Shown: positions 11,726-63,749 of the stretch, piece by piece
How the letters are laid out: each line of letters begins with the position of its first letter
Numbering within the stretch: the first letter of the stretch is position 1
NCBI GenBank assembly: GCA_902625885.1
Contig: CACODE010000006.1
Span: 8,729-72,728, forward strand
Source: an uncultured Candidatus Poseidoniales archaeon
Lineage (GTDB): Archaea; Thermoplasmatota; Poseidoniia; Poseidoniales; Poseidoniaceae
Length of the DNA: 64,000 nt
Direction: 5' to 3'
The notes under the pieces: model-generated
Seen by the model: only the letters and a program-made list of their open reading frames with translations
Databases searched by the model: none
Told to the model about the DNA's origin: nothing
Translations under genes and position numbers: made by a program

Positions 11726-11831
11726 CCCCCCTGATTGCAAACTGCTACAACATCTCCCCGACTATAACACTTGGGTGAAAATCAGGCATAAATCGCCCTG
11801 CTGTGCTGAATGTTTTGTCCACGAACCGCGC

Positions 11832-14138: not shown

Positions 14139-14920
14139 TCCTCTGCGTCGTCCGCCACGCCCTCATCGCTGAGACGTTCCACGTCCTCTATCGAACGCCC
14201 AACGAGCCTGATGAACACGTCTTCCAAGGTCTCGTCAGTCGATTGTTTCAGGCCTTTGACCGTGCCGGCAGCGAGCACTTTCCCGTCGTTGATGATGGCC
14301 ATCCTGTTGCACATCCGCTCGGCCATTTCAAGCACGTGGGAGCAGAGAAAGATGGTCCCGCCCTCGGCGACATGATTGAGCAACCATTGCCGGCATTTGC
14401 GCTGGTATATCGGGTCGAGGTTGGCAAAGGGTTCGTCAAGGAAGAGCAGTTTCGGCTTGTGGATAAAGGCGCTTGCAAGCATGACTTTTTGTCGCTGACC
14501 TTTGGACAAATCTTTGCACATAGTGTCCCGTTTTTCATCGAGACCAAACCAGTCGAGCCAATGCTCCACCTTGGCCTTCATGTCGCTCACGCCACGGAGT
14601 CGGGCGACGAACTCAAGAAATTCTGCCGGGGTGAGGAACGAAGGGGGCGATTCAGATTCTGGGACGATACCGATGTTGGCTTTCACCTTCTGTGGGTCGT
14701 TCACGGCGTCAACACCGAGGACCTCAATTCGGCCTTTGCTCGGCCGGAGTTGCCCGGTGAGGAGTTTGATGAACGTGGATTTACCGGCCCCGTTTGGACC
14801 AAACACCCCAAAGAACTCACCAGCATGAACCTGAACGTTAAGGGGATGCAGTGCGATGAAATCACCGTATTTTTTTGCCATGTCTATGGCACTGACCATC
14901 GGTTCTGCCTCGTCAGTCAT
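14135..14920 (-). CDS. ABC transporter ATP-binding protein
   Basis: Walker A GPNGAGKSTF, signature-like LSKGQRQKVMLA and Walker B LLFLDEPFANLD. Start moved to ATG 14920 (MTDEAEPMVSAIDM...), which sits about 26 nt downstream of a TATA-like TATGATAATC and may therefore be leaderless. Longer alternatives at 14986 and 15259 overlap or abut the divergent gene. Confidence 0.85.
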   Translation of the reverse strand: MTDEAEPMVSAIDMAKKYGDFIALHPLNVQVHAGEFFGVFGPNGAGKSTFIKLLTGQLRPSKGRIEVLGVDAVNDPQKVKANIGIVPESESPPSFLTPAEFLEFVARLRGVSDMKAKVEHWLDWFGLDEKRDTMCKDLSKGQRQKVMLASAFIHKPKLLFLDEPFANLDPIYQRKCRQWLLNHVAEGGTIFLCSHVLEMAERMCNRMAIINDGKVLAAGTVKGLKQSTDETLEDVFIRLVGRSIEDVERLSDEGVADDAEE

Positions 14921-24682: not shown

Positions 24683-24694
24683 CAACGGCAAGAG

Positions 24695-24766
24695 TGCGAG
24701 CGCCGGGACTCGAACCCGGGTTCAGGCGTTGGCAACGCCCGGTGATAACCACTACACTACGCTCGC
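24695..24766 (-). tRNA. tRNA-Gly (anticodon GCC)
   Basis: The reverse complement folds by hand into a cloverleaf. The acceptor stem GCGAGCG/CGCTCGC is a perfect 7 bp. The anticodon stem is GGGCG/CGCCT with loop TTGCCAA (U33, GCC, A37). The T-arm is CCGGG-TTCGAGT-CCCGG and the discriminator is A. CCA is not encoded. Confidence 0.9.
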
Positions 24767-27800: not shown

Positions 27801-27925
27801 CCGTCAACCCAGTGCGTGGTGATTTGCACGGTTGGCGAGGCGTTGCCTTGAGCGGAGACGGGCAGGAGAGAACTCAAGAGGAGGGCCGCAAAGCACAGTG
27901 AGGCCAGCCTGCGGCGGTGTATCAT
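24848..27925 (-). CDS. large secreted, C-terminally anchored surface (glyco)protein, S-layer/adhesin candidate
   Basis: 1025 aa. It has a signal peptide (MIHRRRLASLCFAALLLSSLLPVSAQG), well over a dozen N-x-S/T sequons and beta-rich Ig-like C-terminal repeats. A single C-terminal TM (VLIGLGVILFFGAVVVLVQLW) is followed by a short basic tail. Confidence 0.6.
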   Translation of the reverse strand: MIHRRRLASLCFAALLLSSLLPVSAQGNASPTVQITTHWVDGTGAENPHAYLLTFSDNGTYGIDVELLHERNGVALPNTHTVSWDSTDGFRTALLNFNTSLAWGDSVDLTVTITEHNGVSGLEVEASRNFVVGLWNQPMDDHEVLLSTSWALEQDYATEEGNQNFSLAFTGQGWQQRIGETLSSWELGNGTFQTVESTENGTTDLDLVLTQLWKNETVVAGVLTSQIFDARGHGGLRTTVVDGETVTVIDADVSKASLNRSVINGVVGEHLSLEATGSLNISEESGDDSSLNIDGELAVFFFEYTDVDGVRVLQHTQFEAMADFVLIDEDTRLDVSLDGFTSINRWEDGVRTQHLEELYGQGTFGFVGEDDNASVQVNGTILDLHTKLENGTTLIDDLHVDGTITGDVQGDFGVVRGIETTGMQRNATGDEFLVNVIFQESWFNITGISGGNFFDGAGVGATHNQTWDYQAVQSDWDNRTVRLVWRQTGPDASEGEEYPERSPQQRNASVPDTQEGLGNLTVGRENGLMPIPLIKDDRIRLAQQDGIVLNVVAGDTRIDTRDGHNLTVIEWSGTYGSDGETGTATGTMVSVGPLKGLLSSVQRTLAVPFGEDDESVSLAETQTLARVLSPAIVSEDENTAPTIGEVQWRDGLAFGEGGAIAHLEIHVADDEWNIVAVEADLASLGLGLLALNDRGLDGDLVVGDDVFTASVVISGLHAGPATVGVTATDSFGASSSLDATLHVDNLPPRLLEVEAVPGALERGQSIVINVRAYDGHGVAAVHLDLREYGGDVVELTTEDGSLWAGMVTMPNGMTPGEQSLLVVAEDGLGASTQQRYFTPTSVVGDSYFGPHHVNSAAAVDITVRILNDRPTIILEQATVSKKPASTHVYTVQVTDPDGIQRVQIRLGIYAPIGGPTWTNMHDDGVNGGDEVANDGVYTAVLSVREGTPLGTHEIAVRAFDAYGEMNTGDAVVKLVADDSTATVSGGVDSQVLIGLGVILFFGAVVVLVQLWRRNEEGGNDRFGMQ

Positions 27926-48364: not shown

Positions 48365-50893
48365 ATGACAACACCGACCATCATCCAAGGGTTTTCCTGG
48401 AACATGGCGGGACCGCTGCTTTTTGCATCCTTAGCGGCTTGGTTTTTCTGGCGAAACATCGTGCCGCGGCAGTTGAGAGGCTTGCAGGTTGCCTTTCAAA
48501 CGGGGGAGAAAAAATACGAAGTCCACCGCGTCACGGACTCGGTCGAAGACGTGCGAAAACTCCTGACGAGAGAGGGTACGCGGCTTGGTGTCGTTTCGTA
48601 TTTGATGGCCCTGACGGGAAGCCTTGTCCTCCTGTTTGAATTCATCAATTTCCGGACAGGAGTCACGGTGGGTTACCACGCTCCGTCGGTGGCTTTTGCG
48701 CTGGTGCTCATCGCCGTTCCGGCGGTTGTGTCAAGCGGGACTTCGCTTGGCGCACAAGTCATCAAACCGCACGGTGTGAGTCGAGCCTCGCTTCAAAGTA
48801 ACTCAAACCTCCGAAACGCCTCGTACTTTGCCCTCACCATGGCGTGGATGTTACTGGCGTTCGGTGTCGGAATGGTGCTGGAAGCGGCCGCGTTCTCACC
48901 AACCATGCGGTACAGCACCATGGCGCTGGTGGCGTTCAGTCCTGCCGTGCTCGCTTACGGTCGTATTCTGGGTTCCTCGTGGCACGCCTTGAAGCAGTCC
49001 TCTTCCCAAATAGCAAAAGGCGGCGCATCGCCGTTTCACAACCATCTGCCAAATGCTCGTCAACAATTCATCGCTCAAGTGGTTCATTTCAACCTTATCG
49101 TGATGCCTTTTGTGGCGTTCAACACGCTCGTTTCGTTGATGTTGCTGATCTACAACCCCGACCTGTTCGTTCATTCGGACCGGGTGGTCAACCTGCCGGA
49201 ATATCGAGTGCAGTCCACGTACATGGAAGAGGGAGGTGTCCTTGGTTTTGCACTCATTGAGCTGTTCTCTTTCATACCTCAGGCCGGCATTCGCGTTCCC
49301 ATCGTGACGACGTTGCTGTTGTTCTTGCTCTTGAACGTCGCAGCGATCGGTTTCCTGTTCGTTTACGAAGTCGCCCGAATTCTCTTTTTGGACATTCAGG
49401 ATGTGTCGGGTCGCGGCGGAATCCGTCTTGCCGACAGCCGTTTGCTGCGCGCTGAGCCCATCCAGCAAGCGAACGTCCTGAATTTCTGTTTCACCGGTTT
49501 TGCCGGCCAGTCGATGCTGCTGCTCGCCCTTGCGATGATCACGTTTTGGGATTCAAGTTTCCTGCCACAGGGAACCGGTTGCGGTTCATGGGAAGGGAAC
49601 GTTTGTAACGTTTTGGAAAAAGACATGCTGGAGCAGTTGACGTGGATGTTGGCCGCCGGTGGACAAGTGGCCTTCCTGTTGGTGTGGGCCTTGTCCAGAA
49701 AACGCTCCACAACCCTCAGCGAGATCACTTTTGACGCTTCAATGGACGAGGACCGCACCCGTTTACGCGGCATGAGTGACATGATTTACCTCAAACAGCG
49801 GTCAACCAGCGTGCTGCTTGGCAACGACGATTGGACCACTGCCATAGAACGGTTTGAATCGTCCACACAGGGACGTGAAGCGATGCTTGTTGGCTTGGAT
49901 ATGATCCGTTCCACCAAAGCCAAAATGCTGCTCTACACCGGACTCGGGCGCTGGGACGAAGCCGAAGAATTGGCGGTTGACTTGCTGGCTCTGCAGGGCG
50001 GGAGGGACGCTCAAATTTCGCGCTTGGTCCTGTGTGCGGCGAGCCTTGCGCAACGCGACTACAGGGAAGCCGTCCCACGATTGGCATTGCTGGACAACAG
50101 CGATATTGAGGCCGTTCGCCTCCGTTGGGTCGCCAGCGTGCTGACTGGACAGCACCACTTGGACAAGGAAGCCAAATCCATGCTCAGTGTTGACCCGCTT
50201 CGCAAGGACAACATCCGAATGCTGGAGCAATTTGATGGGGAGGGGACGGTCTTAAGAAAAACGCCCATAAAACAACCATCTCAGCGATCGATGTACCTTT
50301 CAGAAATCGCTCGGATGAGGTTGACCGGACAAAGCGAAGAGGCCCTCAACCATCTCGAGCGCCAGCTGGCAGCGCTTGACGAAGGTGCATGGCCTCATGG
50401 CCAGTTGGTGGCCGCTTTACTCAACCTTGACGATGGGAGAACGCTGACCGCCGTTAGCGCCATCAAGAAGCTGTCAAAACAACACCCGCGTCATCCGCAC
50501 ATCCGCGCCGTTATGCACCAGCTGGCGGGCATGGGCCAGGCGAAACGACCGGCCTCTGAGCCAACCAGGATTCAATGGCTGCTGGAAGGGGAAACCGATT
50601 GGAAGCAGGCTTGGGGGCAACACAACGTCGCGCCTCCACCCACGCTTGAAAACACAAGTCTGCGGGAACACGCCATGAACGCCAACGCTTGGATGCTGCT
50701 TTTGAGCGAGGAAGGTACGAACCAGCGAGCGGCAAAGAAGGCGATGAAAAGCTTGGTCGATGAGGTACCTGTGGGGTTGTTTACCCACTTAACCGGCCTC
50801 ACCATCACAATAGGTGGCATGCCCGTTGATTTGGGCCTCCCGGCAAACATCAACCTCAACGCTGCTCGAAAACACGGTCTGCTCGACCGGTGA
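48365..50893 (+). CDS. hypothetical polytopic membrane protein with C-terminal helical-repeat (TPR-like) domain
   Basis: 842 aa, starting 7 nt after the thrS stop. The N-terminal ~430 aa contain about 10 hydrophobic helices. The C-terminal ~400 aa are alpha-helical repeat-like (A/L/E-rich). No family recognised. Confidence 0.5.
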   Translation: MTTPTIIQGFSWNMAGPLLFASLAAWFFWRNIVPRQLRGLQVAFQTGEKKYEVHRVTDSVEDVRKLLTREGTRLGVVSYLMALTGSLVLLFEFINFRTGVTVGYHAPSVAFALVLIAVPAVVSSGTSLGAQVIKPHGVSRASLQSNSNLRNASYFALTMAWMLLAFGVGMVLEAAAFSPTMRYSTMALVAFSPAVLAYGRILGSSWHALKQSSSQIAKGGASPFHNHLPNARQQFIAQVVHFNLIVMPFVAFNTLVSLMLLIYNPDLFVHSDRVVNLPEYRVQSTYMEEGGVLGFALIELFSFIPQAGIRVPIVTTLLLFLLLNVAAIGFLFVYEVARILFLDIQDVSGRGGIRLADSRLLRAEPIQQANVLNFCFTGFAGQSMLLLALAMITFWDSSFLPQGTGCGSWEGNVCNVLEKDMLEQLTWMLAAGGQVAFLLVWALSRKRSTTLSEITFDASMDEDRTRLRGMSDMIYLKQRSTSVLLGNDDWTTAIERFESSTQGREAMLVGLDMIRSTKAKMLLYTGLGRWDEAEELAVDLLALQGGRDAQISRLVLCAASLAQRDYREAVPRLALLDNSDIEAVRLRWVASVLTGQHHLDKEAKSMLSVDPLRKDNIRMLEQFDGEGTVLRKTPIKQPSQRSMYLSEIARMRLTGQSEEALNHLERQLAALDEGAWPHGQLVAALLNLDDGRTLTAVSAIKKLSKQHPRHPHIRAVMHQLAGMGQAKRPASEPTRIQWLLEGETDWKQAWGQHNVAPPPTLENTSLREHAMNANAWMLLLSEEGTNQRAAKKAMKSLVDEVPVGLFTHLTGLTITIGGMPVDLGLPANINLNAARKHGLLDR

Positions 50894-52678
50894 TTACACC
50901 CGTCTTCGCAACCGCTCCATCGCTGCATCGGCTGCGCCCAATGCCTCGAGAGCCTCAGAAACCCGACCTTTTTCAAGACAACTTGCCGCTTCAGCCACCG
51001 CTTCCTCACAAGCCCGTCTGTCCTCATCGATAGCTTTGATTTGAACTGCTTCGCATTGATTGCGCAAAACACTCCATTGCTCGCTGACGAAATCGTAGAG
51101 TTCGTTCGCTTCTTCTGCGGCGTGGTTTTCCCGATCCAGAGCGGCAAGCAATTGCTCAAGCAGCATGCCGGCATGCGACCAAACTTTGTCGTCGGCCGCT
51201 TGAATGATTTCTGCGAGCTTGGCCTCCCATGCCTCGCTGTCGTCCCTGGATGCAAACCTCTCTCGAAGTTTTTTCTTCTGCTTGAGGGCACGGAGCACAT
51301 CGTCCATGGCCGCTCGCTCGCGCTCAACCGTTCGAACTACACCGTCCGCCAGACCGATGCACTGGCTGGCATTGCCAAGCGCCAATGCCTCATTGGCTTG
51401 GTTCAGACGGTCCTGCATTTCTGTCGTGTCCAGGCCATCGCTCTGTTCCACGGTCCGAATCGCTTCATTAAGCGAGTTCTTGGCACGTGCGAGGGCTTCA
51501 TCATCCGCTTCAAGCTGCGAAGGTATGGTCATCGCAAATTCGAACGCCTCCTTAGGCCTCTCCTTCGCTAAGCTGGCTTTGGCATCAGCAAGAAGTTCCC
51601 GGAGATGGTTGATGCCATCGCCCTCCTTACCGTCCATGGCGCTGGTCGCTTCAGCGATGGCGGCCTCGGCCTTTTGCCACCACTGGATGACTTCATTCGC
51701 TCGTTGTTTGGCTTGCCGAAAGAGTTGCTCACCCTCCCGTAAAGAACCAAGTTTGACCTCCCTCTCTCCCATCTCGTACGCTTTTCTCGGCCGCTTCACC
51801 ACGGGAGCGATGTCCTCCGCTCGCTCAACATGCGACAGCGCTTCTTTTCCGATCACCTCAACATCGCCTGCGAACGAAATCGCACGTTCCATGTCCTCCT
51901 CACTCTCGTCCAACAACCGCATGCCGTACACGGGGTCAACATGCCCTTCCTCCTTGGCCGTGGTCAGCAGGCTTGCGGCCTGGGCGACTGCTGCACCTTG
52001 GGATTTTAACTCGAGCAGCCGGGTCTCAAGCCTGTCCAGACGTTTCCTGAATTGCTTTCTTTCGAGTTTTTGGTCGTCACCCACAGTCCATGAGTAAACG
52101 GTGTCGAACAAGGCTGCAGCGCAGACCGTAAAGGCCAGACCTCCTTCGAGGGTTGCCATCGGTTTGCCAGCGGTGAAGGTGAGCGCAAGGGCCGACATGG
52201 AACCAATGCCGGTGAGCACGGCTCGGTAGCGAAGAACACCAAAATTCCCTTGCATGGTCCGATGAGAGAGTTGACGACAAACGATACCGCTGGCGAAAAT
52301 CAGCACGCACCCAGCGTTGTTTAACTGACCATCGCCCAAGCCCAGAGCGGCGATGCAGAGCAACAGCGGCCATGCCACTGTGGTGGCCGACGCGACTCGA
52401 GATCTGGCCGAAGGGTCGTCTAAAGTCAAATCTTGGTTGAAAATACCCCAAATCAACAGAAGCAGAGGGGCGCCGAAGCTCGTCAGGACGACACCGTCGC
52501 CGTCGATGAGGGATTGAAGGGACGGTGCAGCTAGCCAAACGGCGCAAGCGAGCAACAAAAGCGACGCTATGAGAGTGGCGGTGTCCACCCTCTTGAGGCG
52601 GTTCGCCCGCTCGGCTTCAACGGCAGCATCTGCGTCCGCCCAAGTTACCATGGATGCCTGTCGGTGCTTTTCCTCCAT
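50894..52678 (-). CDS. hypothetical membrane protein with long cytoplasmic helical/coiled-coil domain
   Basis: About 6 N-terminal TM helices are followed by ~380 aa of E/A/L/R-rich helical sequence. The track start at 52684 is GTG, and the ATG at 52678 has an upstream GGAG. Its stop abuts the convergent 842-aa gene. Confidence 0.5.
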   Translation of the reverse strand: MEEKHRQASMVTWADADAAVEAERANRLKRVDTATLIASLLLLACAVWLAAPSLQSLIDGDGVVLTSFGAPLLLLIWGIFNQDLTLDDPSARSRVASATTVAWPLLLCIAALGLGDGQLNNAGCVLIFASGIVCRQLSHRTMQGNFGVLRYRAVLTGIGSMSALALTFTAGKPMATLEGGLAFTVCAAALFDTVYSWTVGDDQKLERKQFRKRLDRLETRLLELKSQGAAVAQAASLLTTAKEEGHVDPVYGMRLLDESEEDMERAISFAGDVEVIGKEALSHVERAEDIAPVVKRPRKAYEMGEREVKLGSLREGEQLFRQAKQRANEVIQWWQKAEAAIAEATSAMDGKEGDGINHLRELLADAKASLAKERPKEAFEFAMTIPSQLEADDEALARAKNSLNEAIRTVEQSDGLDTTEMQDRLNQANEALALGNASQCIGLADGVVRTVERERAAMDDVLRALKQKKKLRERFASRDDSEAWEAKLAEIIQAADDKVWSHAGMLLEQLLAALDRENHAAEEANELYDFVSEQWSVLRNQCEAVQIKAIDEDRRACEEAVAEAASCLEKGRVSEALEALGAADAAMERLRRRV

Positions 52679-52781
52679 AATCACTCCGATGTCTTGTCCG
52701 TTTTTGCTGGCTTAACCAACTCCACGTAGCGGCAAGGTTCATGGGTGTCATCGGCTTGTATTTCTATCACGAGGGAGTTGC

Positions 52782-55527: not shown

Positions 55528-55869
55528 ATGTTGCAACACCTCTTGAGTGAATTTCTCAACGTGGAGGGAGTTGAACAAGCCATCATGGTGGACGACCGTG
55601 GTCGGCTCCTATCGAGCGTCGGCCACGAGGGGATGTTGCCGAAAACAGACCGGGTTGTGGAACTCGCTGTGGCCGCTCTGGAGGCGACTCAAGGTCGCTG
55701 TGACGGCGATCTTCAGGAGGTTTGGATAGAAGGTGAACAATCCACCCTTCTCGACATCCTCACGCCGTATCGAATCGTTATGCTCTCCGGTAAAAGAAGC
55801 AACATCGCACGCTGGAGGCACTCGATGGACCACTTGCGACAACAGCTTGCAACAACCCAAGAAATGTAG
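55528..55869 (+). CDS. Roadblock/LC7 (MglB-like) domain protein
   Basis: 113 aa. LNVEGVEQAIMVDDRGRLLSSVGHEG...AVAALEA...EVWIEGEQSTLLDILTPYRIVMLSG follows the Roadblock/LC7 alpha-beta-alpha pattern, by-eye recognition only. Confidence 0.6.
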   Translation: MLQHLLSEFLNVEGVEQAIMVDDRGRLLSSVGHEGMLPKTDRVVELAVAALEATQGRCDGDLQEVWIEGEQSTLLDILTPYRIVMLSGKRSNIARWRHSMDHLRQQLATTQEM

Positions 55870-55879
55870 GTGAACACAC

Positions 55880-58800
55880 ATGTTTGAATTGCCGAATGGA
55901 ACGCCTGTCACAGAACCGATCAACCTTGATGAGGGAACGCTGCAATCCTTCGCTCACGGCGTCATTTCAACGTTCATCGGACGAAGAAAGACCCCGGTTG
56001 GGCACCGACTTGTCAGAGCAGGACGCATTGTTGGCTACCTCGCCGAATCCGAAGAAAAGAACGTGCTGCTCGGAGGTGCCGAAGCAAAAACCGCTTTGGA
56101 AGCCGCAGAGACGGGACAAAAGGTGCGTCATCTTGCCTCTTCCTACACCATGGCTGGTTTGGGTGGCTTGGCCGATGTGGTCCCCGAAGCCTTCGTTCAT
56201 CAGGTTGACCGGCAGGGATTGAAATCAGGCACCAACGAGATTGAACGCTTGTTGGCTCGCGACCTCTCAACCGTGATTCGAACCATCACGGAAGACACGA
56301 CTGTTCGCGGAGCGATGGCCATCGACAGCGGCATGCTGATCGACCATGCTGGCGACCTCCCAGGGCTTGGTGATGAGGAACGCTTGGCGAGCGAACTTCA
56401 CGAATTGATGAGCAGCATGAAGGGGGAAAAAATGCACGAAGGTTGGGGCATGAAGGGCCAAAGTCACTGGACCCTCCACACAGATAACGGTGCCCTCCTT
56501 CTTGCCCAAAGCGGTGAGATTTCCCTTGCTGTTTGGACCGAGAAAGGGGCCAACCACGCCAGGTTGTTGTCCGCCGCTTCCATCAGCCTGGAGGGCGATA
56601 TCGTCGCTGCTGGGGCGCACGGTGCGAAATTGCCAGAGGGTTTTGCCCTTCGAGAGGGCCGTGGAGGGGCCGACGCTGTTGTTTCGTTTCTCAAGGCCGG
56701 CGTTGATGAAAACGTCACCGGCCACATCCAATCAGGCTCAGGCAACAAAGCCGCGTCCCTCATTCTTTCAAAAGGGGTGCCGGTCGCGCTCTGGGCACCT
56801 TCCTGCGACAATGAACAGGAGGCCATGCTCGCCCTTACGGAAGGGAAACGCAAAGTGAAACTCCTGCGCTTCCCTGCAGGCACCATCGTGTCGGCCAAAT
56901 CGGGCACCGTGGAAGGTTTCACGATTTCAGGCTTCATTCAATCGCTCTCAACGGTACGAACCCGTTCGGAAGCCCGACAGGCCTCCTTGAAGGCGCTTCT
57001 TGATGACCTTCTTGGTTTTGAAGCGGGTCTGGAAGCCCTGCGCCACGCACGGTCGAAAATGAAATTCAAGTCCGACGGTGCGGACGTTGCCGAACCGCTG
57101 CCCGTCATGCGAGACGAAGCGGTGGCTGCTGTTGATGCAGGTCTGCGCCGAAAACTCAACAAGGCCGAACGGGCCATTGATGAATTGAACAACGAAAAAG
57201 CCGTCCTCAACGCACAGATCAAGGCTTTGGAAAAGAAGAGAGAAGCAGCGCAAGTTGTGGCAAGAGAGGCTGCTGAATCACGGAAAGAAAACACCACGGC
57301 ACTGGAGGACGCCAATGCCCAACTCAACACCATGCAGGTCGACCTGGCACAAGCCCGAGGGCAATGGGAAGAGGCGGAATCCCGCGCAGAACGTTTGGTC
57401 CGACGGGTCAACGAGTTGGAACATCAAGTCAGTGAGAGAGCTGCTGAACTTGCCAAAGCCATCGGCGAGGCTGAGAGCAGCGCCGAGTTGCAAACCATGA
57501 TCGAAGAGCTCGCTTTGAAAGAAGCCGAACTGCAGGCCAATCTCGCTGAAGGAAGCGAACGCCTGAGCACCATCAGGAAACAAAGCGAGGACGAAGAACG
57601 CCGACTCAGGGTGTTGAGCGAGCAGGTGAACACCAGTCGTGAACGTCATGCGAGAGCTCAGGAAGATTTGATCGCTGTTCAGGAACAAGTGAACGTCAGC
57701 AACTTGGAGCTTGAATCGGCACGCTCCGAAGAAAAGCACGCTCGCCGGCGAACCGAAGAGGATCGCCTGCGTCGAGCAGAAGACGAAGCCCGCAGAACCA
57801 ACACCCAAGCGGAATTGCGGGAATTGATGGAAGAAAGGCGCCAGATCCTGCGGGAACTGGGTGATTTGGGGGCCAGAAGAGGCCATGCAGAAGCGGAATT
57901 GGCTTCGCTGGTGGACAAAGCGACTTCGCTGGCAGAGGCCCATGAAGAAGCGCTTTCCGATATTCAAGAGGCGGAGCGACTTCGCGCCCGTCTCGCCGAA
58001 GAACCGCTTGCTCAGGCTCTTTTGGACGACAACAACACCTTCCAAGGCCTCGGTCCCGTTTTGGAACGTTTGGAACATGCTCGAAGCCTTGGCTATTCCG
58101 TGACCATGCTTGACCGAGCCGTCGAAAGGGCCCTGCAAGTCATCCAAGGAACGGTCGATCATGTTGCTGCAACGCCACGTCATCTTTTGTCGTCGGAGGT
58201 CATGACGCTGCTCGAACGGCAAGTACCCCAAACAGCAGGTGCCGTCCGCGGTTTAGCAAGATGGTCGGTTCAACAACGGCTCGAACAACAACTTGGCGAA
58301 ACCGTCAATCATGTGGTGGTGGATTTGGAACACCTTTTGGAGGATTTCGACCGTTCCATCACGATGCTTCGTCGCATTCGAAACGTGCTTGAGCAGGTGG
58401 AGCGCCTCGGTGCACCTTCGCACGAAGTGCATGCCCTGCTGGCCAATTGTCAGCGTCCAGAAGCCCTTCCAAGCTTGGCTCTGGGCACCCGAAAACTCAT
58501 TCAGGTGGCGTTGGACGACATCTATCTTGAAGCCGACCAGCGGGACGCTGGGGAGGCAATAGGTCTGGAAGAGACCGCCCGAGTCTTGGAGGAATTGATC
58601 ACACAACTTGACGCCTCGGGATTGACAGATGGCCGTCCAAGAGGCATGATGTGGGATTTCCAACGCGACGGTTTGCTTCCGTTTGAGCGGGAATCCATTC
58701 CTAAGCAACAGCGAATACCGGTTGACGAAACCATGCTCAGCGACATGGAACCTCACCTTGTCCAGGGAGATATCGCCGAGCCCATCGTGTCCACCACGGT

Positions 58801-59062
58801 AGAGGATACCGATGAAGAGGGTTGGTCGCCGTTGCCCCCGCCGGCTGAAGAATTGGAAACACCCGTGTCGGCCGACCCTGCAGGCATCACGGCCGACTCG
58901 CTCACGGCACTGGAGGATGAACGCGCCCAACTGGAGGCTGAACTGGCTCGCCTTGATGCAGAGCATCGTCACCGCCTCCATCACACGACCACACCTGCCA
59001 CCACGTCCACGGATTCAGCGCTCGCCGATCTTGAATCGCGTCTTTCCGATGTAGAATTTTGA
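55880..59062 (+). CDS. giant multidomain protein: two PATAN/DUF4388-like segments, Roadblock-like domain, long coiled coil, acidic tail
   Basis: 1060 aa, with an AGGTGA SD 7 nt upstream overlapping the previous stop. Residues ~125-230 are Roadblock-like (VRGAMAIDSGMLIDHAGDLPG...GALLLAQSGEISLAVWTE). Residues ~18-85 and ~262-331 resemble DUF4388/PATAN (RAGRIVGYLAES...LLGGAEAKTALEAA; NKAASLILSKGVPVALWAP...EQEAMLALTEGKRKVKLLRF). Residues ~415-710 are heptad-like and E/R/A/L/Q-rich. No P-loop is seen. Confidence 0.6.
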   Translation: MFELPNGTPVTEPINLDEGTLQSFAHGVISTFIGRRKTPVGHRLVRAGRIVGYLAESEEKNVLLGGAEAKTALEAAETGQKVRHLASSYTMAGLGGLADVVPEAFVHQVDRQGLKSGTNEIERLLARDLSTVIRTITEDTTVRGAMAIDSGMLIDHAGDLPGLGDEERLASELHELMSSMKGEKMHEGWGMKGQSHWTLHTDNGALLLAQSGEISLAVWTEKGANHARLLSAASISLEGDIVAAGAHGAKLPEGFALREGRGGADAVVSFLKAGVDENVTGHIQSGSGNKAASLILSKGVPVALWAPSCDNEQEAMLALTEGKRKVKLLRFPAGTIVSAKSGTVEGFTISGFIQSLSTVRTRSEARQASLKALLDDLLGFEAGLEALRHARSKMKFKSDGADVAEPLPVMRDEAVAAVDAGLRRKLNKAERAIDELNNEKAVLNAQIKALEKKREAAQVVAREAAESRKENTTALEDANAQLNTMQVDLAQARGQWEEAESRAERLVRRVNELEHQVSERAAELAKAIGEAESSAELQTMIEELALKEAELQANLAEGSERLSTIRKQSEDEERRLRVLSEQVNTSRERHARAQEDLIAVQEQVNVSNLELESARSEEKHARRRTEEDRLRRAEDEARRTNTQAELRELMEERRQILRELGDLGARRGHAEAELASLVDKATSLAEAHEEALSDIQEAERLRARLAEEPLAQALLDDNNTFQGLGPVLERLEHARSLGYSVTMLDRAVERALQVIQGTVDHVAATPRHLLSSEVMTLLERQVPQTAGAVRGLARWSVQQRLEQQLGETVNHVVVDLEHLLEDFDRSITMLRRIRNVLEQVERLGAPSHEVHALLANCQRPEALPSLALGTRKLIQVALDDIYLEADQRDAGEAIGLEETARVLEELITQLDASGLTDGRPRGMMWDFQRDGLLPFERESIPKQQRIPVDETMLSDMEPHLVQGDIAEPIVSTTVEDTDEEGWSPLPPPAEELETPVSADPAGITADSLTALEDERAQLEAELARLDAEHRHRLHHTTTPATTSTDSALADLESRLSDVEF

Positions 59063-59316
59063 TGATGGTCATGTCAGAAGAGACGACCACATTGATGGGC
59101 CGAGAAGAGGTTCAGGGCGGTCGCTATCCGTTGTGGATTGAAAGGGTGCTTTTCCTGGCCGCCCTTCTGCTCTTCATCTTTTACAGTACCGCAGCTGTTG
59201 AGGCGGTTGGGCATTCCATCATTGGCCCGTTGGTGGGTTACGTTGTGTTCCCACTTTGCTTGCTGGCCGGTGCTGAATTGTTGGGTCGCTTTGCACAGGG
59301 CATGCTGAGTTCATAA
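59062..59316 (+). CDS. small 2-TM membrane protein
   Basis: 84 aa from ATG 59062, which overlaps the giant gene's stop (TGATG). It has two hydrophobic helices (VLFLAALLLFIFYSTAAV; LVGYVVFPLCLLAGAELL). Confidence 0.45.
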   Translation: MMVMSEETTTLMGREEVQGGRYPLWIERVLFLAALLLFIFYSTAAVEAVGHSIIGPLVGYVVFPLCLLAGAELLGRFAQGMLSS

Positions 59317-60528
59317 TTGGATGAAATCCTTTTGCTCCGGTTCAACCGGAAGCCTGTTGGTTTTGGATTGTATGAAACCAATGACCCTTTGCCATGGAAT
59401 GAAGAAGCGAAGAACGGCCATGATGCTTAGGAAGAGCAAGGCAGAGATGACCAGGCCGTAGGTGAGCGTCAACTCGATGGATTCAGAAACCTGACCTGCC
59501 CATTGGCTGCCTGTTGTGTCTGAAACAATGGTCAACAGCACCTTGTGGAAGCCAAGGGCGACCATCGTGGCCAACCCGGTGAGGCCCAAAAACAAGAACG
59601 TGTGACGAAGGTGCGTGTTGAGAACGTTATCCATTTGACGAACGTATTCGGGATCTCGCTTGCAGGATTCAGGCAGGCGGAAAGCGTACTCGAGGTTTCG
59701 GATAACGCCATAGCTCGCTTCCTGGAAGACCATGATGAGGACGGCGATGAGAATCAAATTGAACTGTTCTCGTGTCACCAAGTTGATGCCAAACAGACCA
59801 ATCGTGGGGTCTGAAGTTTGGCTTTCCAACGTCGCCAACGAACCGGCGTAGGCGCCGAGTTGGGACTTGATAAGCGGGAACGTTAGGATGGCGTGAATAC
59901 CCAAAAAGAGGAGCGTGAAACCGATGGCCCAGGCGATGGAACGACGAGATAGGCCCCAGATGCCACGCGTTCCCATGATCACCGGCAGCAGGTAGATGAA
60001 AAGAATGAGCAAAGACATGATCATCAACAGCGGCGTTTGCAACGTTTCCAACTCATCGTTGGTAGGGAAACGGAGTTCAAACGAAAACAACATGCCTGCG
60101 AACCACATCAACACCAAACGACCGATGAGCAGCATGATGAGGCCCAAAATGAAGGCGAGTTTGATGCGTTGTTGCACCTTCGGGGATTGAAAAGCAACGA
60201 GCGCCATCAGGCCTCCGAGCCCCAATCCCAGCACCAGAGGCACGAAAAAGCGGGCCATGCCGTCCCTGCCCTCACCGGTCAACCAGTCCCCCAGAGGAAG
60301 TTGGTCAGCAATGAGCAGTTCAATCGAGTCAAACACCATGGTGTGGTCAATGGAGCCAACAACGTACGTCGATACCACCTCGAGGTACATACCGATGAGG
60401 GCGACGGTGGCAATGACCTGAAGAGCGATGATTTGCCAGCGCCGGCGGAGCATCTTCAAATGGAGCGTACGAGGTTTCGCCACCCCGTCTAGGTAAACAT
60501 CGGATTGGAGACCTACTTCACCTGCCAA
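59311..60528 (-). CDS. hypothetical polytopic membrane protein (about 9-10 TM)
   Basis: 405 aa. The TTG start at 60528 has an AAGGGGGT SD 6 nt upstream and lies 1 nt after the DUF58 stop; an alternative ATG is at 60453. It is the last gene of the DUF4350-like/DUF58 operon. No family recognised. Confidence 0.5.
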   Translation of the reverse strand: MAGEVGLQSDVYLDGVAKPRTLHLKMLRRRWQIIALQVIATVALIGMYLEVVSTYVVGSIDHTMVFDSIELLIADQLPLGDWLTGEGRDGMARFFVPLVLGLGLGGLMALVAFQSPKVQQRIKLAFILGLIMLLIGRLVLMWFAGMLFSFELRFPTNDELETLQTPLLMIMSLLILFIYLLPVIMGTRGIWGLSRRSIAWAIGFTLLFLGIHAILTFPLIKSQLGAYAGSLATLESQTSDPTIGLFGINLVTREQFNLILIAVLIMVFQEASYGVIRNLEYAFRLPESCKRDPEYVRQMDNVLNTHLRHTFLFLGLTGLATMVALGFHKVLLTIVSDTTGSQWAGQVSESIELTLTYGLVISALLFLSIMAVLRFFIPWQRVIGFIQSKTNRLPVEPEQKDFIQL

Positions 60529-60529
60529 C

Positions 60530-61783
60530 TCAATACCCCCTTACCTGCATCAATGCCTGAGACAAATCCATGTCGGGCATCCAATCGATAACTTGCGCCC
60601 CAGATCCTGCCAAAGTCGTGAGCCGATTTTGGCGTTCAAGTTTGAGAACCTCGTAGGACATTCTTGGGATGCGGCTTACCAATCGCTCAAAGTCCACGCT
60701 CGACGGCGACAGAACCGTCACCTCATGACCGCGACCAACCAAATCTCGAACGGCGGCCGGCACCGTACCGTCCCCCTCACAAGAGGAGATGACGAAGACC
60801 GGGCTGCCTCGGCTAAATCGACCGCTTAGCGAGTTGGTGACGGCCTGCAAGGGCATGGTACCTTTCGGTCGGACGCCTGCAAGGGCGCTGAGGATTTTGA
60901 AATACTGCTTGTCCCCGGTATCGGGAGGTAGGTAGGAGAGTTTCTCGTCGTAGATGGCCAGAGCGACGGAGTCCCGGCGCTTGAGGAAGAACGCAGCGAG
61001 ACTCGCCGCTGAAACGGTACCCATCTCGAGCGGGTTCTTGAGAACGGTACCGATTCGTGCCAAGTCCCTGCTGTCCAATATGAGGTAAAGGTCCGTGACC
61101 GCATCTCGACATTTCTCGTTCACCATCAAATCGCCAGTTCGGGCAAAAGCCTTCCAGTTGATGTTCTTGAACGGGTCCCCGGGAACGTACTCTCGAAGCG
61201 AGTAAAACTCCGAGCCCTGTCCCGGTGTTCGCAGGGTGGTGGCGCCGGTGTACATTTTTGGCGTTCGGCTTCGAAGAAACGCTTCTTCGATGTCCTTGAT
61301 TTGCGGGAAGATAACGATGTCGCTGTGATGGTCGACGTACATGTCTTCAACGCCCAAATTGAAGGTGTTTCGCGCACGCAACGAAACGGGTCCAATGGAG
61401 TAGTGACCCCGAAGCGGACACCGGAGGACGTAGCGTATGCGTGCGCTTTCCCCCGGCTTCAGGTTGATTTGCATCTGGTTCAGGCCGCTTCGCAACTTCA
61501 TCTCATGGGGAATGTTGTCGTAGATGTCCAGCATTTGCGTCTTCCGATTGCTTCGGTTGGTGACTAAGAGTTCGACGTAAAGGTCGTCGCCCTTGTAGAG
61601 GTTGTCGGCCGAGAGCGTGCGTTGGACTTCGACATCACCATGACCAGAAATCCAGGAGTTGACAACGATGAACGCAATGAGCGTCAAACCGAGGATCATC
61701 ATCTGTTGATTGGAAATCATCATGCCGATGAGCACCAGTGCGATGCCGCCGGTGAATGTAAAGGAGGCTTTGCGTGTCCACAT
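60530..61783 (-). CDS. DUF58-family protein (vWA-like, usually MoxR-associated)
   Basis: It has two N-terminal TM helices, a beta-sandwich region, and the hallmark block LREYVPGDPFKNINWKAFARTGDLMVNE followed by LYLILDSRD. A GAGGTGA SD lies 4 nt upstream of ATG 61783. Confidence 0.75.
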   Translation of the reverse strand: MWTRKASFTFTGGIALVLIGMMISNQQMMILGLTLIAFIVVNSWISGHGDVEVQRTLSADNLYKGDDLYVELLVTNRSNRKTQMLDIYDNIPHEMKLRSGLNQMQINLKPGESARIRYVLRCPLRGHYSIGPVSLRARNTFNLGVEDMYVDHHSDIVIFPQIKDIEEAFLRSRTPKMYTGATTLRTPGQGSEFYSLREYVPGDPFKNINWKAFARTGDLMVNEKCRDAVTDLYLILDSRDLARIGTVLKNPLEMGTVSAASLAAFFLKRRDSVALAIYDEKLSYLPPDTGDKQYFKILSALAGVRPKGTMPLQAVTNSLSGRFSRGSPVFVISSCEGDGTVPAAVRDLVGRGHEVTVLSPSSVDFERLVSRIPRMSYEVLKLERQNRLTTLAGSGAQVIDWMPDMDLSQALMQVRGY

Positions 61784-61792
61784 GATTTCACC

Positions 61793-63412
61793 TCACTGGC
61801 GCCCCCACGCCTTGATGCGTTTCACCAGCGCAACGGTCTGTTCCAGGGTGTACTTGTTTCGTGTCTCCACGGCAAATTTAGCAAGCACGGGGTCGTTGAT
61901 CATCGCCAATAACTCGTTGGCCTTCATCGCTTGGAATTCTTCACGATTGAGCCCGTTTTGATTTCGAACTTTTGAGAGGAAGACCTGACGAATCTTGTCC
62001 ACCTTAGAATAATACGCATAACGATTGGCATCGCCAAACCCGTAGTAGATGATGCTGAACACATGCCGCCAAGGTTCGGGGTCGCGTTTCTTGATGAGAA
62101 CGGCTTCAAAGGTAATGAACAAGATCAGGAACAGGAGGAGCATCGCCAGCCCCTCGCCCGTGAAGTAGACCAGCAGGAAGTACACGGTGTTGTATGAATC
62201 CGCCATCAGGGCGCTTTGTGGATGCCGGGACTCATCAAAAATGACCATGGCGTTTTCAGCGGGCTGACCGGCTTCGTCGGCGAGTTCACTCATCAGGGCT
62301 TCAGCGATGAAGTCAAGCGCCCATTTTCTGTTGTGGTTGGCTGGAATCATGGCATCGGTGGGTCCGTATTTGCCTTCGTTGAAACCCTCCCAATCGTACA
62401 TGGCGTTGATGAGAACCGAACCGTCGGCAACAAACACGACCCGCCCGCCATCGCTAGGAGAGCAACTCGCTCGGGCGCAGGCCTCAATGCTCAAATTGAA
62501 TTGACCGAGTTTGTCAGGCGTTTCAGGCGTGATTTCGTTGCCCACCCAGATTTCACCGTCGCCGTTCATGTCAACCGTCGCTTCGCTACTGGTCAACGCC
62601 AGAATAGCCACCTCGGAAAGCGGCCCGCGCACACCTGGTATGACTTCAAGATCTGTGATGTTGTTGAGCAGCACCTGGTAGGTGCCGTTGTAGTTGATCT
62701 GCCCTCCCGAGATGTGTTCCCTGCACAACGGGGCCTCGTCAACGTCAAGACGTTGACCGTCCAATACGGAACACGGGTGTTCCCCGGGCCCACCAACATC
62801 GGCCCAACGTGGATGGGTGGAGAGTGTTGATGGGTCCAACTCCGTGCCGTCCATGCCACAAGGGTTGCTTTGGATGCACATCCAAATGTAATTTCGATCC
62901 AGTTCGTTCACGTAGGTTGGGTCCTCCACTCGATGACCCGTAAATTGAACACCGAAGGCTTCGGCGATGGTGTTGGCAAATCCGTAATCTTCCAGAATCA
63001 TGGCGGTTCCGCCGGCCTCAATAAATTCCACAATGGCGCTGATTTCGGAAGGCGAATAACCACTTCCTGAGGCGATGGTGATGAAACCGTCGTCGTCAAA
63101 CTGAGGAAGCGTGAGCGTGTCTCTTTCAACGCCCGCCAGGATGTAGGTCGTGTTACGAGGGTCCTCGATGTCGGCGAGCAGCAACGGGCTGCTTACCAGC
63201 GACCGTGTCTCAATACCCATGCTCTTGATGTCCTCGCGAAAGGCGGACATGTCGTTCCAATCGTCGTCGTAAGCCGAGAGTTGATTTGTGGCGCTCAGGT
63301 TGATGAAGTTCAGGAGGATGGTCATCAACAAAATGAACATCACCGCCCAAAACGACGCCTGAAGAGCAAGCCTTCGGACGTTGATGTTCAGAGATGAGCC
63401 CAACATGTGCAT
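61793..63412 (-). CDS. DUF4350-like membrane-anchored protein (tentative)
   Basis: It has an N-terminal TM (FWAVMFILLMTILLNFI) and a large extracytoplasmic domain with YILAGVERDTLTLP...AIVEFIEAGGTAMILEDYGFANTIAEAFGV, reminiscent of DUF4350/GldG-like proteins found in MoxR-DUF58 clusters. A second TM and a cytoplasmic helical tail follow. The first ATG is at 63412 (the track start at 63415 is GTG). Confidence 0.45.
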   Translation of the reverse strand: MHMLGSSLNINVRRLALQASFWAVMFILLMTILLNFINLSATNQLSAYDDDWNDMSAFREDIKSMGIETRSLVSSPLLLADIEDPRNTTYILAGVERDTLTLPQFDDDGFITIASGSGYSPSEISAIVEFIEAGGTAMILEDYGFANTIAEAFGVQFTGHRVEDPTYVNELDRNYIWMCIQSNPCGMDGTELDPSTLSTHPRWADVGGPGEHPCSVLDGQRLDVDEAPLCREHISGGQINYNGTYQVLLNNITDLEVIPGVRGPLSEVAILALTSSEATVDMNGDGEIWVGNEITPETPDKLGQFNLSIEACARASCSPSDGGRVVFVADGSVLINAMYDWEGFNEGKYGPTDAMIPANHNRKWALDFIAEALMSELADEAGQPAENAMVIFDESRHPQSALMADSYNTVYFLLVYFTGEGLAMLLLFLILFITFEAVLIKKRDPEPWRHVFSIIYYGFGDANRYAYYSKVDKIRQVFLSKVRNQNGLNREEFQAMKANELLAMINDPVLAKFAVETRNKYTLEQTVALVKRIKAWGRQ

Positions 63413-63466
63413 CACAAGGAATTGGTTCCTGTATGGGGAACGCTCGCTATTGACTTTAGAAGGTTG

Positions 63467-63509: not shown

Positions 63510-63749
63510 TCAAACGTTCAAATGAATGTTATCGGCAATGCGTGCCACCGCCGTTCCCGGTATTCGAACGGTGTTCTCGGTGTGCTCAAACGGAAGGGCA
63601 GAGGCGTTGACCGAAGCTTCTACTTCAACGAGAAGTTCACTGATGACGCCCGTGTTGAGGTCAAAGCTCAAATCGATGAGGGTGCCCATTGAGGCGCCGG
63701 TTCGGTCCAGAACGGTGTTTCCAAGGATTTCTCGACCGAATATCGCCAT
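63510..63749 (-). CDS. PRC-barrel domain protein
   Basis: 79 aa. GREILGNTVLDRTGASMGTLIDLSFDLNTGVISELLVE...VRIPGTAVARIADNIHL fits the small archaeal PRC-barrel pattern. A GGTGA SD lies 4 nt upstream of ATG 63749. Confidence 0.6.
   Translation of the reverse strand: MAIFGREILGNTVLDRTGASMGTLIDLSFDLNTGVISELLVEVEASVNASALPFEHTENTVRIPGTAVARIADNIHLNV

Follow-up and report, generated by a model that had tools for sequence, protein, structure and literature searches.

A Poseidoniales-specific three-gene operon with two Roadblock domains that may build a membrane-anchored coiled-coil scaffold

Three tightly linked genes on one strand of archaeal DNA encode a 113-aa Roadblock/LC7 protein, a 1060-aa multidomain protein with a second Roadblock domain and a long coiled coil, and an 84-aa protein with two transmembrane (TM) segments. 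We consider it somewhat better than an even chance that they constitute a Poseidoniales-specific operon building a coiled-coil scaffold that is anchored to the membrane and has a Roadblock head, and the design of this scaffold is probably new. No published description of the trio was found in the literature. Marine Poseidoniales are abundant, and the trio has been seen only in them.

Positions are those of the window, the whole 64-kb stretch of DNA analyzed, whose source organism is a Candidatus Poseidoniales (MGII) archaeon. Gene 2 runs in the order D1, Roadblock D2, D3, coiled coil of about 280 residues, helical bundle and acidic tail. The features are:

55528 to 55869, + strand: gene 1, 113-aa stand-alone Roadblock/LC7 protein (ORF, Pfam Robl_LC7, family profile)
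55868 to 55873, + strand: AGGTGA, Shine-Dalgarno-like site that shares bases with the gene 1 stop (TAG) and lies 6 nt ahead of the gene 2 ATG (sequence read)
55880 to 59062, + strand: gene 2, 1060-aa multidomain coiled-coil protein (ORF list, orthologs)
55955 to 56179, + strand: D1, aa 26-100, alpha/beta domain of four strands, helix, strand and helix (AF2, pLDDT ~85-89)
56255 to 56593, + strand: D2, aa 126-238, internal Roadblock/LC7 domain (PDB profile, AF2/Foldseek, Pfam)
56642 to 56869, + strand: D3, aa 255-330, alpha/beta domain (AF2, pLDDT 82-92)
57137 to 57976, + strand: coiled-coil region, aa 420-699 (heptad statistics)
57977 to 58714, + strand: C-terminal helical bundle, aa 700-945 (AF2, conservation)
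58715 to 59059, + strand: acidic tail, aa 946-1060 (composition, alignment)
59060 to 59064, + strand: TGATG, in which the gene 2 stop and the gene 3 ATG overlap (sequence read)
59062 to 59316, + strand: gene 3, 84-aa 2-TM protein (hydropathy, family alignment)

The junctions between the genes are those of an operon, as the earlier note had proposed, and the ORF list and a reading of the sequence confirm the three ORFs, the AGGTGA site across the end of gene 1 and the TGATG overlap. Among about 65 related loci, gene 1 and gene 2 are spaced by -8 to +11 nt and gene 2 and gene 3 mostly by -4 to +12 nt; the trio is translationally coupled. The 84 aa of gene 3 are counted from its ATG, and its entry in the ORF list begins at an in-frame TTG at 59059.

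Gene 1, in which a Roadblock/LC7-like pattern had been noticed, is confirmed from its sequence as a divergent Roadblock/LC7 protein. Pfam Robl_LC7 matches it at E=9e-5 with 22.6 bits (gathering score 23) and matches nine of 20 gene 1 orthologs, while the family profile searched against the PDB matches solely Roadblock/MglB chains, the best being 7f8m at E=6e-4. An ARWRH motif near the C-terminus is nearly invariant in the family alignment. The second Roadblock-like module, suspected at about residues 125-230 of gene 2, is likewise confirmed as D2. Its profile matches the PDB entry 3leq (CvnB5) at E=1.5e-5, followed by the Asgard Roadblock 7f8m and LAMTOR4; its AF2 model (pLDDT 80) has MglB 6hjm as its top Foldseek match (E=3.6e-6, TM 0.71), and all 50 of the Foldseek matches listed for D2 have the Roadblock fold. 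Pfam Robl_LC7 matches five of 14 gene 2 family members. Gene 1 and D2 also have a detectable sequence relationship, with hmmsearch of the gene 1 HMM against D2 sequences giving E=6e-6 to 7e-5 and hhalign aligning the two in full-length register at E=0.0027.

Solved Roadblock domains are homo- or heterodimers (MglB2, MglB/MglC, LAMTOR2/3 and the Rag C-terminal domains), which makes it most likely that gene 1 pairs with D2, the two forming a pseudo-heterodimeric Roadblock platform that heads the coiled coil. Papers on MglB/MglC and RomY are also said to describe a dimeric, NTPase-regulating Roadblock role. Judging from every characterized Roadblock platform, the most likely role of the head is to bind or regulate an NTPase, probably a small GTPase, whose gene lies elsewhere in the genome, and together the two would position some envelope-associated process. 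That Roadblock proteins are dimeric and regulate NTPases is established (Koonin and Aravind 2000; Miertzschke 2011, both as summarized in PMC4316618). As the earlier note had observed, the Walker A pattern [AG]xxxxGK[ST] is absent from the three proteins and the adjacent genes. No small GTPase was found within the window or the inspected flanks, and no GTPase or other candidate partner NTPase in the window or within 10 kb of the trio in relatives, an absence that we count against the NTPase-platform explanation.

D2 is flanked by two segments (residues ~18-85 and ~262-331) that had been likened to the PATAN domain (DUF4388, Pfam PF14332), reportedly described by Makarova et al. in 2006. Folded alpha/beta domains do exist at these places, namely D1 and D3, the latter with the AF2 order strand, helix, three strands, helix, strand and then helices at 349-374, but statistical similarity to PATAN/DUF4388 was not detected. 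Neither domain has a Pfam match. DUF4388 matched none of 14 diverse gene 2 family members, although the same Pfam tool scores a synthetic DUF4388 consensus at E=3.7e-37; when D1 and D3 were compared by hhalign with a profile built from 122 genuine DUF4388 proteins, the probabilities were 2.2-2.3%, versus 5.2% for a Roadblock negative control; and hmmsearch of D1/D3 against PATAN gave E=0.3-1.3 in tiny databases of 35-122 sequences. With HMMER and profile-profile scores no better than negative controls, a PATAN/DUF4388 identity for D1 and D3 is not supported. No sequence similarity between D1 and D3 was found, and no solved PATAN structure was available for fold comparison.

These scores weigh against the idea that the trio is an MglA/MglB-type polarity module, with D1 and D3 as PATAN sensors and the Roadblock pair as GAP/GEF, that positions type IV pili or archaella. 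Such a module would accord with MglB as the best fold match of D2 and with the documented association of PATAN and MglB genes, which are neighbors in bacteria (PMC4316618). Like PATAN, D1 and D3 are small alpha/beta domains beside a Roadblock module, the DUF4388 consensus is compatible with their order of three strands, helix, strand and helix, and hhalign in its best register puts G.i.f..G.vv.A / G.eA..l where it had earlier been proposed. A PilB/T2SSE ATPase gene also lies in the window (10193-11740), although 45 kb from the trio. Besides the scores and the dissimilarity of D1 and D3 to each other, however, gene 2 lacks REC and the other domains that typically accompany PATAN, no MglA-like gene lies nearby, and the family occurs near-universally across the order, whereas motility genes in MGII are, as far as is known, patchy. 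We regard a polarity module as quite unlikely.

The long heptad-like segment described for gene 2 is located at residues 420-699, where hydrophobic occupancy of the a/d positions lies 6.3 SD above shuffles (z=6.3) and Gly and Pro are nearly lacking (0-2 per 35 aa). Nothing in the databases matches it but the arms of the SMC, Rad50 and JetC coiled coils, and these far under the cut-offs. A chromosome-organizing or DNA-repair protein of the SMC/Rad50/JetC kind would explain the E=3.9e-13 of NCBIfam SMC_prok_B on gene 2 and the matches of Rad50, ASRP and PADLOC JetC, but these are all confined to the coiled-coil region (residues ~312-727) and score at most 48 bits versus cut-offs of 300-1087. Gene 2 has neither a Walker A motif nor a TM segment anywhere along its length, its N-terminus is a Roadblock head and its C-terminal helical bundle is unlike an SMC head; the missing ATPase head effectively refutes an SMC-like identity, to which we give next to no chance.

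The helical region and acidic tail said to follow the coiled coil are both present. The bundle is all-helical in the AF2 model (pLDDT 81, pTM 0.70) and is the most conserved part of gene 2, with 56% identity in the most distant orthologs versus 28-36% in the other folded regions. It has no match among PDB folds (best E=1.4), and the sole PDB match of its profile is a weak one to FliS at E=0.017. The tail, with 28 D+E versus 5 K+R, begins with a variable, acidic linker in which a Trp is conserved, continues with two conserved amphipathic helices, and ends in the alignment as L.D[LIV][ED]-[LFIM]-COOH. The bundle and C-terminal peptide form a putative output or partner-binding end. Searches with D1, D3 and the bundle gave no functional clue, and this counts against the scaffold explanation.

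A coiled coil of about 280 aa with globular ends would also suit a cytoskeletal or filament-forming protein, as are crescentin, DivIVA and coiled-coil-rich proteins, in which the Roadblocks serve as dimerization or assembly modules and there is no nucleotide-switch partner. This is unlikely, though it is to be taken seriously: the neighborhood has no GTPase, both families of the order have the protein, and the high conservation of the C-terminal bundle is expected of a self-assembly or partner interface. Yet to our knowledge every characterized Roadblock protein works with an NTPase or motor, conserved Gly-containing breaks interrupt the coiled coil, and there is no evidence of polymerization.

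In the scaffold that we favor, gene 2 probably dimerizes via its coiled coil and the 2-TM partner could tether the complex to the membrane. Gene 3 has the two TM segments attributed to it, with hydrophobic stretches at about residues 24-46 and 50-72 (hydropathy) and conserved motifs before TM1 (YPLWIE[RK]) and after TM2 ([ST]E.[IL]GR..Q). A 2-TM ORF of 66-85 aa occupies the same position in most related loci, and the family alignment and HMM still detect a homolog in L084 and L086, the most distant lineages. Gene 3 has a predicted N-in/C-in topology, and its cytoplasmic motifs are the probable docking site of the complex, which would in this way be fixed at the membrane.

Full-length orthologs of gene 2 are 1020-1089 aa long with identity down to 25%. 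Gene 1 adjoins gene 2, with identity to relatives down to 17-28%, in every locus with an intact upstream flank except L087, where gene 1 and gene 3 both go undetected beside gene 2. Gene 3 follows in most loci, down to 25% identity and across both Poseidoniales families; it is missing in L072 and L078, and in L084 and L085 an FG-GAP gene is inserted with the gene 3 homolog still following. Gene 1 and gene 2 have been inherited together in almost all of the order. The family occurs only in Poseidoniaceae and Thalassarchaeaceae: it has 63 representatives in a set of 1.84 billion clustered proteins, relatives are encoded in at least 131 species genomes, and none turned up outside the order Poseidoniales. 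Roadblock similarity, a conserved giant gene and a trio that is syntenic rather than scattered, on which the earlier note had made its reading depend, were all found.

Synteny across the order extends to the wider neighborhood (TtuA, PyrBI, a DUF58 cluster and CDC48), and indeed to the full 20-kb region, so that adjacency, even when conserved, is by itself weak evidence of a functional link. The three genes might be mere neighbors in a rearrangement-poor region, with gene 3 going functionally with the convergent 8-TM/DUF58/DUF4350 cluster or alone, and the loci in which gene 1 or gene 3 is absent or gene 3 is split from gene 2 agree with this. It is nevertheless very unlikely, as the genes lie on one strand and overlap stop to start or are spaced by at most 12 nt in dozens of loci that are 25-83% identical, gene 3 lies on the strand opposite to the DUF58 cluster, and the trio is intact where PyrBI and a 596-aa gene are inverted or moved (L043, L046, L047 and L073). 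The near-universal presence of the trio in both families argues for a core cell-biological rather than an accessory role, and may point to a function such as division, shape or envelope organization. The polarity, division or pilus-positioning roles suggested in the earlier note are speculative.

Among known systems, archaeal SMC, Rad50 and ASRP share a long coiled coil with gene 2, with compositional matches, but gene 2 lacks their ABC-type ATPase head and hinge and scores far below the family cut-offs. The Streptomyces conservon (the CvnA-D system; CvnB in PDB 3leq and 3kye) provides the best PDB profile match of D2 and is a membrane-associated complex with a Roadblock protein, whereas the trio locus lacks genes for a CvnA-like sensor kinase, DUF742 (CvnC) and the CvnD GTPase, and the domain architecture is entirely different. 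Of the Asgard Roadblock proteins (PDB 7f8m, 7yh1 and 9jue), it is the Thorarchaeota 7f8m that gives gene 1 its best sequence match in the PDB. Like MglB/MglC of the Myxococcus and Thermus MglA polarity module (PDB 6hjm, 6h5b, 6izw and 1j3w), the trio combines two paralogous Roadblock modules in one system, D2 having the alpha-beta-beta-alpha-beta-beta-beta fold of MglB and gene 1 being a stand-alone Roadblock protein of similar size. Unlike that module, the trio is archaeal, has no adjacent MglA-type GTPase gene, embeds one Roadblock between D1 and D3 in a 1060-aa coiled-coil protein, and includes a 2-TM partner gene. The Rag GTPases differ in carrying Roadblock domains of their own, and no such GTPase was found in the window or inspected flanks. 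Ragulator, whose LAMTOR4 and LAMTOR2/3 are matched by D2, is anchored by lipidated LAMTOR1 rather than a 2-TM protein and has no coiled-coil rod, but as a membrane-anchored scaffold of Roadblock heterodimers it is, functionally, the nearest analog of the model that we propose.

The earlier note described three linked genes as an operon lacking a GTPase, consisting of a Roadblock/LC7 protein, a giant with a second Roadblock module flanked by PATAN-like segments, and a small protein with two transmembrane (TM) segments. The genes, referred to here as the trio, are laid out as follows.

55528-55869, forward strand: gene 1, an ORF of 113 aa
55880-59062, forward strand: gene 2, an ORF of 1060 aa
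59062-59316, forward strand: gene 3, an ORF of 84 aa

The trio is translationally coupled, is conserved throughout the order, and includes a conserved small membrane protein. Both gene junctions are as first described: an AGGTGA Shine-Dalgarno-like sequence at 55868-55873 overlaps the TAG stop codon of gene 1, with the gene 2 ATG lying 6 nt further on, and a TGATG at 59060-59064 contains the TGA stop codon of gene 2 overlapping the ATG of gene 3. Scans with Rfam and for tRNAs found no RNA gene in or near the operon, and no Walker A motif is present in any of the three proteins. The Roadblock pattern noted in gene 1 is supported by a Pfam match to Robl_LC7 (PF03259; E=9e-5), which at 22.6 bits just misses the gathering score of 23. 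This family is matched by nine of 20 gene 1 orthologues, which match no other Pfam family. A PDB search with the profile of the 20 orthologues returned Roadblock/MglB chains only, the top match being a Thorarchaeota Roadblock protein (7f8m, E=6e-4) to which gene 1 aligns over nearly its full length, and from this alignment we infer an alpha-beta-beta-alpha-beta-beta-beta(-alpha) fold. An ARWRH motif near the C-terminus of gene 1 is nearly invariant in the family.

The databases contain a protein 100% identical to gene 2, annotated as hypothetical and assigned to a Candidatus Poseidoniales archaeon, which places the window in Marine Group II. An AF2 model of gene 2 residues 1-375, built with 14 diverse orthologues as input (mean pLDDT 80), contains three alpha/beta domains, D1 to D3.

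D1, gene 2 residues 26-100: alpha/beta domain (AF2 model)
D2, gene 2 residues 126-238: Roadblock domain (AF2 model, profile, and Foldseek)
D3, gene 2 residues 255-330, with helices continuing to residue 374: alpha/beta domain (AF2 model)

The second Roadblock module suspected within the giant corresponds to D2, and three independent tests (PDB profile, Pfam, and fold) back this assignment. In the AF2 model D2 has the Roadblock order of elements (helix, two strands, helix, three strands, helix). Its profile matches CvnB5 in the PDB (3leq, E=1.5e-5), followed by 7f8m, LAMTOR4, and further Roadblock-type chains among the top matches, and Robl_LC7 is matched by D2 of five of 14 gene 2 family members. 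Foldseek with the three-domain model found MglB (6hjm; E=3.6e-6, TM 0.71), and all 50 of the 50 matches listed have the Roadblock fold, so that matches to D1 or D3 could not show among them. A BFVD search with the N-terminal model gave weak longin- and profilin-type matches and nothing else, and the automatic IMG annotation flags a Roadblock COG in one gene 2 orthologue. The gene 1 HMM matches D2 sequences (E=6e-6; 7e-5 in the reverse search), and as judged from these profiles gene 1 and D2 are related Roadblock modules. The trio thus has a free Roadblock module and a paralogous one that heads a long coiled-coil protein. Roadblock/LC7 proteins form homo- or heterodimers via the edge of the beta-sheet and helix alpha2; the relatedness of gene 1 and D2 is compatible with such dimerization without proving it.

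The segments flanking D2 had been likened to PATAN (DUF4388, PF14332), and this label found no support from Pfam, hhalign, or hmmsearch. DUF4388 was matched by none of 14 gene 2 family members and by neither of the isolated segments (residues 1-105 and 248-345) at E-values up to 10, while a synthetic DUF4388 consensus that we wrote as a positive control scored E=3.7e-37. Used as a query, the same consensus yielded 122 real PF14332 proteins for the hhalign and hmmsearch comparisons. Against the profile of these 122 proteins, hhalign gave probabilities of 2.3% for D1 and 2.2% for D3, compared with 5.2% for a Roadblock negative control, and hmmsearch --max in both directions gave E-values of 0.27-1.3 in databases of 35-122 sequences. 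A sequence search found no PATAN structure in the PDB. Neither profile nor HMM comparison detected sequence similarity between D1 and D3, and the idea that they are repeats of one domain found no support. Given the AF2 folds and the failed PATAN tests, we regard D1 and D3 as real folded domains without a family label; dropping the PATAN name keeps a misleading annotation from spreading.

The same evidence bears on the proposal that the trio is a PATAN/MglAB-type polarity module. On its side, the secondary-structure order of D1 and D3 in the AF2 model is compatible with the DUF4388 consensus, and the best PATAN alignments of both domains, though insignificant, share the register proposed in the earlier note. 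Since the PATAN tests were no better than negative controls and the locus holds no small GTPase, we consider this proposal unlikely. MglA/MglB-type modules are recognized by an adjacent or same-operon Ras-like small GTPase gene, and the locus has none. As the earlier note had it, no GTPase lies nearby: small GTPases are missing from the P-loop ORFs of the 64-kb window, which encode an AAA_33 kinase-like protein, a ParA/Mrp protein, an ABC ATPase, and a PilB/T2SSE ATPase, and from the annotated genes lying 10 kb or less from gene 2 in four other lineages. The term GTPase-less applies to the locus alone.

The remainder of gene 2 agrees with the initial description of a heptad-like stretch, a helical region, and an acidic tail. 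Residues 420-699 have an a/d occupancy 6.3 SD above that of shuffled sequences, with Gly and Pro nearly absent. Matches of gene 2 to SMC, Rad50, and JetC fall in this coiled coil alone, at no more than 48 bits against cut-offs of 300-1087. The hallmark of those proteins is an ABC-type ATPase head with Walker A, Walker B, and signature motif, one part of which lies at the N-terminus and the other at the C-terminus. An SMC-like identity, which these matches would favor, is extremely improbable because gene 2 has no Walker A motif and no such head, and we attribute the matches to coiled-coil noise. A defense-system or phage origin was likewise rejected, as PADLOC and PHROGs matches are absent outside the coiled coil. 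Residues 700-945 are modeled by AF2 as an all-helical bundle (pLDDT 81, pTM 0.70), which is the most conserved part of gene 2, with 56% identity in the most distant orthologues versus 28-36% for the other folded regions. Foldseek found no relative of this fold in the PDB (best E=1.4), and FliS, the sole match in a PDB profile search (E=0.017), was judged spurious. The end of gene 2 opposite the Roadblock domain is occupied by a strongly constrained new helical bundle. The acidic tail (residues 946-1060; 28 D+E versus 5 K+R), encoded at 58715-59059, carries a conserved Trp within an acidic stretch (DEEGW..LP.P.D) and two conserved amphipathic C-terminal helices, and the protein ends in L.D[LIV][ED]-[LFIM]-COOH. 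This end is reminiscent of a short linear docking motif, although it matched no known motif; a MIM1-type ESCRT-III motif was rejected because the spacing, judged by eye, is wrong.

Gene 3 is a real and conserved gene with two hydrophobic segments, in line with its description as a 2-TM protein. A 2-TM ORF of 66-85 aa lies downstream of gene 2, at -4 to +12 nt, in most Poseidoniaceae loci, including loci where tblastn sees no similarity to gene 3. The family shares the motifs YPLWIE[RK] ahead of TM1 and [ST]E.[IL]GR..Q behind TM2, and its HMM recovers homologues in the most distant lineages, represented by loci L086 and L084. The charged flanks and the positive-inside rule suggest that the N- and C-termini both face the cytoplasm.

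Gene 2 residues 1-380, searched against 1.84 billion representative proteins, returned 63 representatives, all of them members of the gene 2 family or their fragments, and a scan that took one genome from each GTDB species found relatives in at least 131 genomes. Among the 80 loci kept, the lineage-level labels are Poseidoniales, most of the remaining labels are generic archaeal, and one is Verrucomicrobiales. The last belongs to locus L012 (NZEQ01000033.1), from a MAG labeled Verrucomicrobiales bacterium, which carries a complete Poseidoniales locus at ~82% identity with the same neighbors; this contig is probably mis-binned. Named cluster members belong to the Poseidoniaceae and the Thalassarchaeaceae. 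As a gene set kept in both families and found in no other lineage, the trio makes a promising candidate for a cellular structure that defines the lineage.

Synteny of the trio in relatives was upheld, gene 1 adjoining gene 2 in every locus with an intact upstream flank except L087, a locus of the lineage of the gene 2 relative P0132 (34% identity). In L087, family HMMs run on six-frame translations detected neither a gene 1 nor a gene 3 homologue beside gene 2 (regions 7694-8184 and 11369-11587), and the C-terminal end of gene 2 differs in that lineage. Gene 3 is absent from loci L072 and L078. In L084, whose lineage is the most distant and whose gene 2 is down to 25% identity, the gene 3 homologue (14578-14859) retains YPLWIER. 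Here gene 2 is separated from that homologue by an inserted gene for a 448-aa FG-GAP repeat protein (13221-14567), as is also the case in L085. Further features of the window are as follows.

10193-11740, reverse strand: T2SSE/PilB-type ATPase with a PilB3-like C-terminal domain, 45 kb from the trio
24694-24766, reverse strand: tRNA-Gly(GCC), the sole RNA gene detected in the window (ARAGORN, Rfam)
24848-27925, reverse strand: 1025-aa protein, no Pfam match
48365-50893, forward strand: 842-aa protein, ~8 TM segments, no Pfam match
50894-52684, reverse strand: 596-aa protein, 3 TM segments and a long helical region, no Pfam match
59311-63415, reverse strand: cluster convergent to the trio, encoding an 8-TM protein (405 aa), a DUF58 protein (417 aa), and a DUF4350 protein (540 aa)
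63510-63749, reverse strand: PRC-barrel protein, 79 aa (Pfam PRC, E=2.9e-6)

The 842-aa and 596-aa genes are conserved beside the trio in relatives. BLASTP found no similarity between gene 2 and the 596-, 842-, and 1025-aa proteins, and a paralogous origin from these large neighbors was set aside. The PRC-barrel gene directly adjoins a CDC48-type AAA ATPase gene in related loci; small proteins of the PRC-barrel type have been linked to cell division in archaea. No MoxR ATPase was seen beside the 8-TM/DUF58/DUF4350 cluster. In loci whose gene 2 identity is 62-86%, that of the DUF58 protein is 97-99%, which suggests unusually strong constraint on the DUF58 protein. The sequence of the T2SSE/PilB gene suggests a locus for a type IV pilus or an archaellum-type structure.

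Adjacency by itself is weak evidence of linkage, since the surrounding 20 kb (ThrRS, PyrBI, TtuA, 8-TM/DUF58/DUF4350, PRC barrel, and CDC48) are also largely syntenic, as would be expected if the three genes were mere neighbors without a joint function. However, four loci (L043, L046, L047, and L073) show rearrangement of PyrBI and the 596-aa gene but keep the trio intact and tightly spaced, and we consider it quite unlikely that the genes are mere neighbors.

The reading that we lean toward, by a modest preference for the model as a whole, is that the trio encodes a membrane-anchored coiled-coil scaffold with a Roadblock head. Gene 1 and D2 would pair as a Roadblock heterodimer comparable to MglB/MglC or LAMTOR2/3, gene 2 would dimerize via its coiled coil, and gene 3 would hold the complex at the membrane. 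The Roadblock head would engage an NTPase encoded elsewhere, which is the weakest step of the model, and the bundle and C-terminal peptide would recruit a target. A conceivable but doubtful variant dispenses with the GTPase, making the trio an order-wide cell-biological machine in which a membrane-anchored cytoskeletal coiled coil bears a Roadblock heterodimer head between two new alpha/beta domains, and the bundle recruits division, shape, or envelope machinery. If true, this machine would represent a prokaryotic Ragulator-like membrane scaffold of independent origin, arisen within a major lineage of uncultured marine archaea.

In the surface ocean, Poseidoniales (Marine Group II) rank among the most abundant archaea; to our knowledge they have no cultured representative and their cell biology is almost wholly obscure. 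The trio is a solid order-defining gene set in this ecologically dominant uncultured group. In the literature searched, no paper links Poseidoniales with the gene 2 protein or with Roadblock biology. The trio joins an ancient NTPase-regulator fold, Roadblock, to a long coiled coil, a new helical domain, and a membrane anchor, and bears on the use of Roadblock platforms beyond eukaryotes and Asgard archaea. It also offers concrete constructs for biochemistry, namely gene 1 with D2, the C-terminal bundle, and gene 3.

The Roadblock modules of the trio belong to a known superfamily. In the databases and the literature searched, the gene 2 architecture (alpha/beta domain, Roadblock, alpha/beta domain, coiled coil, new bundle, acidic tail) is absent elsewhere, as are a free Roadblock partner and a 2-TM partner of such a protein. 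The Streptomyces conservon CvnA-D consists of four genes, for a sensor kinase, a Roadblock protein, a DUF742 protein, and a GTPase. Unlike the conservon, the trio has the Roadblock modules alone of this set, and its neighbors are TtuA, PyrBI, and the 8-TM/DUF58/DUF4350 cluster. The closest functional analogies to the trio are MglB/MglC and the membrane-anchored Ragulator.
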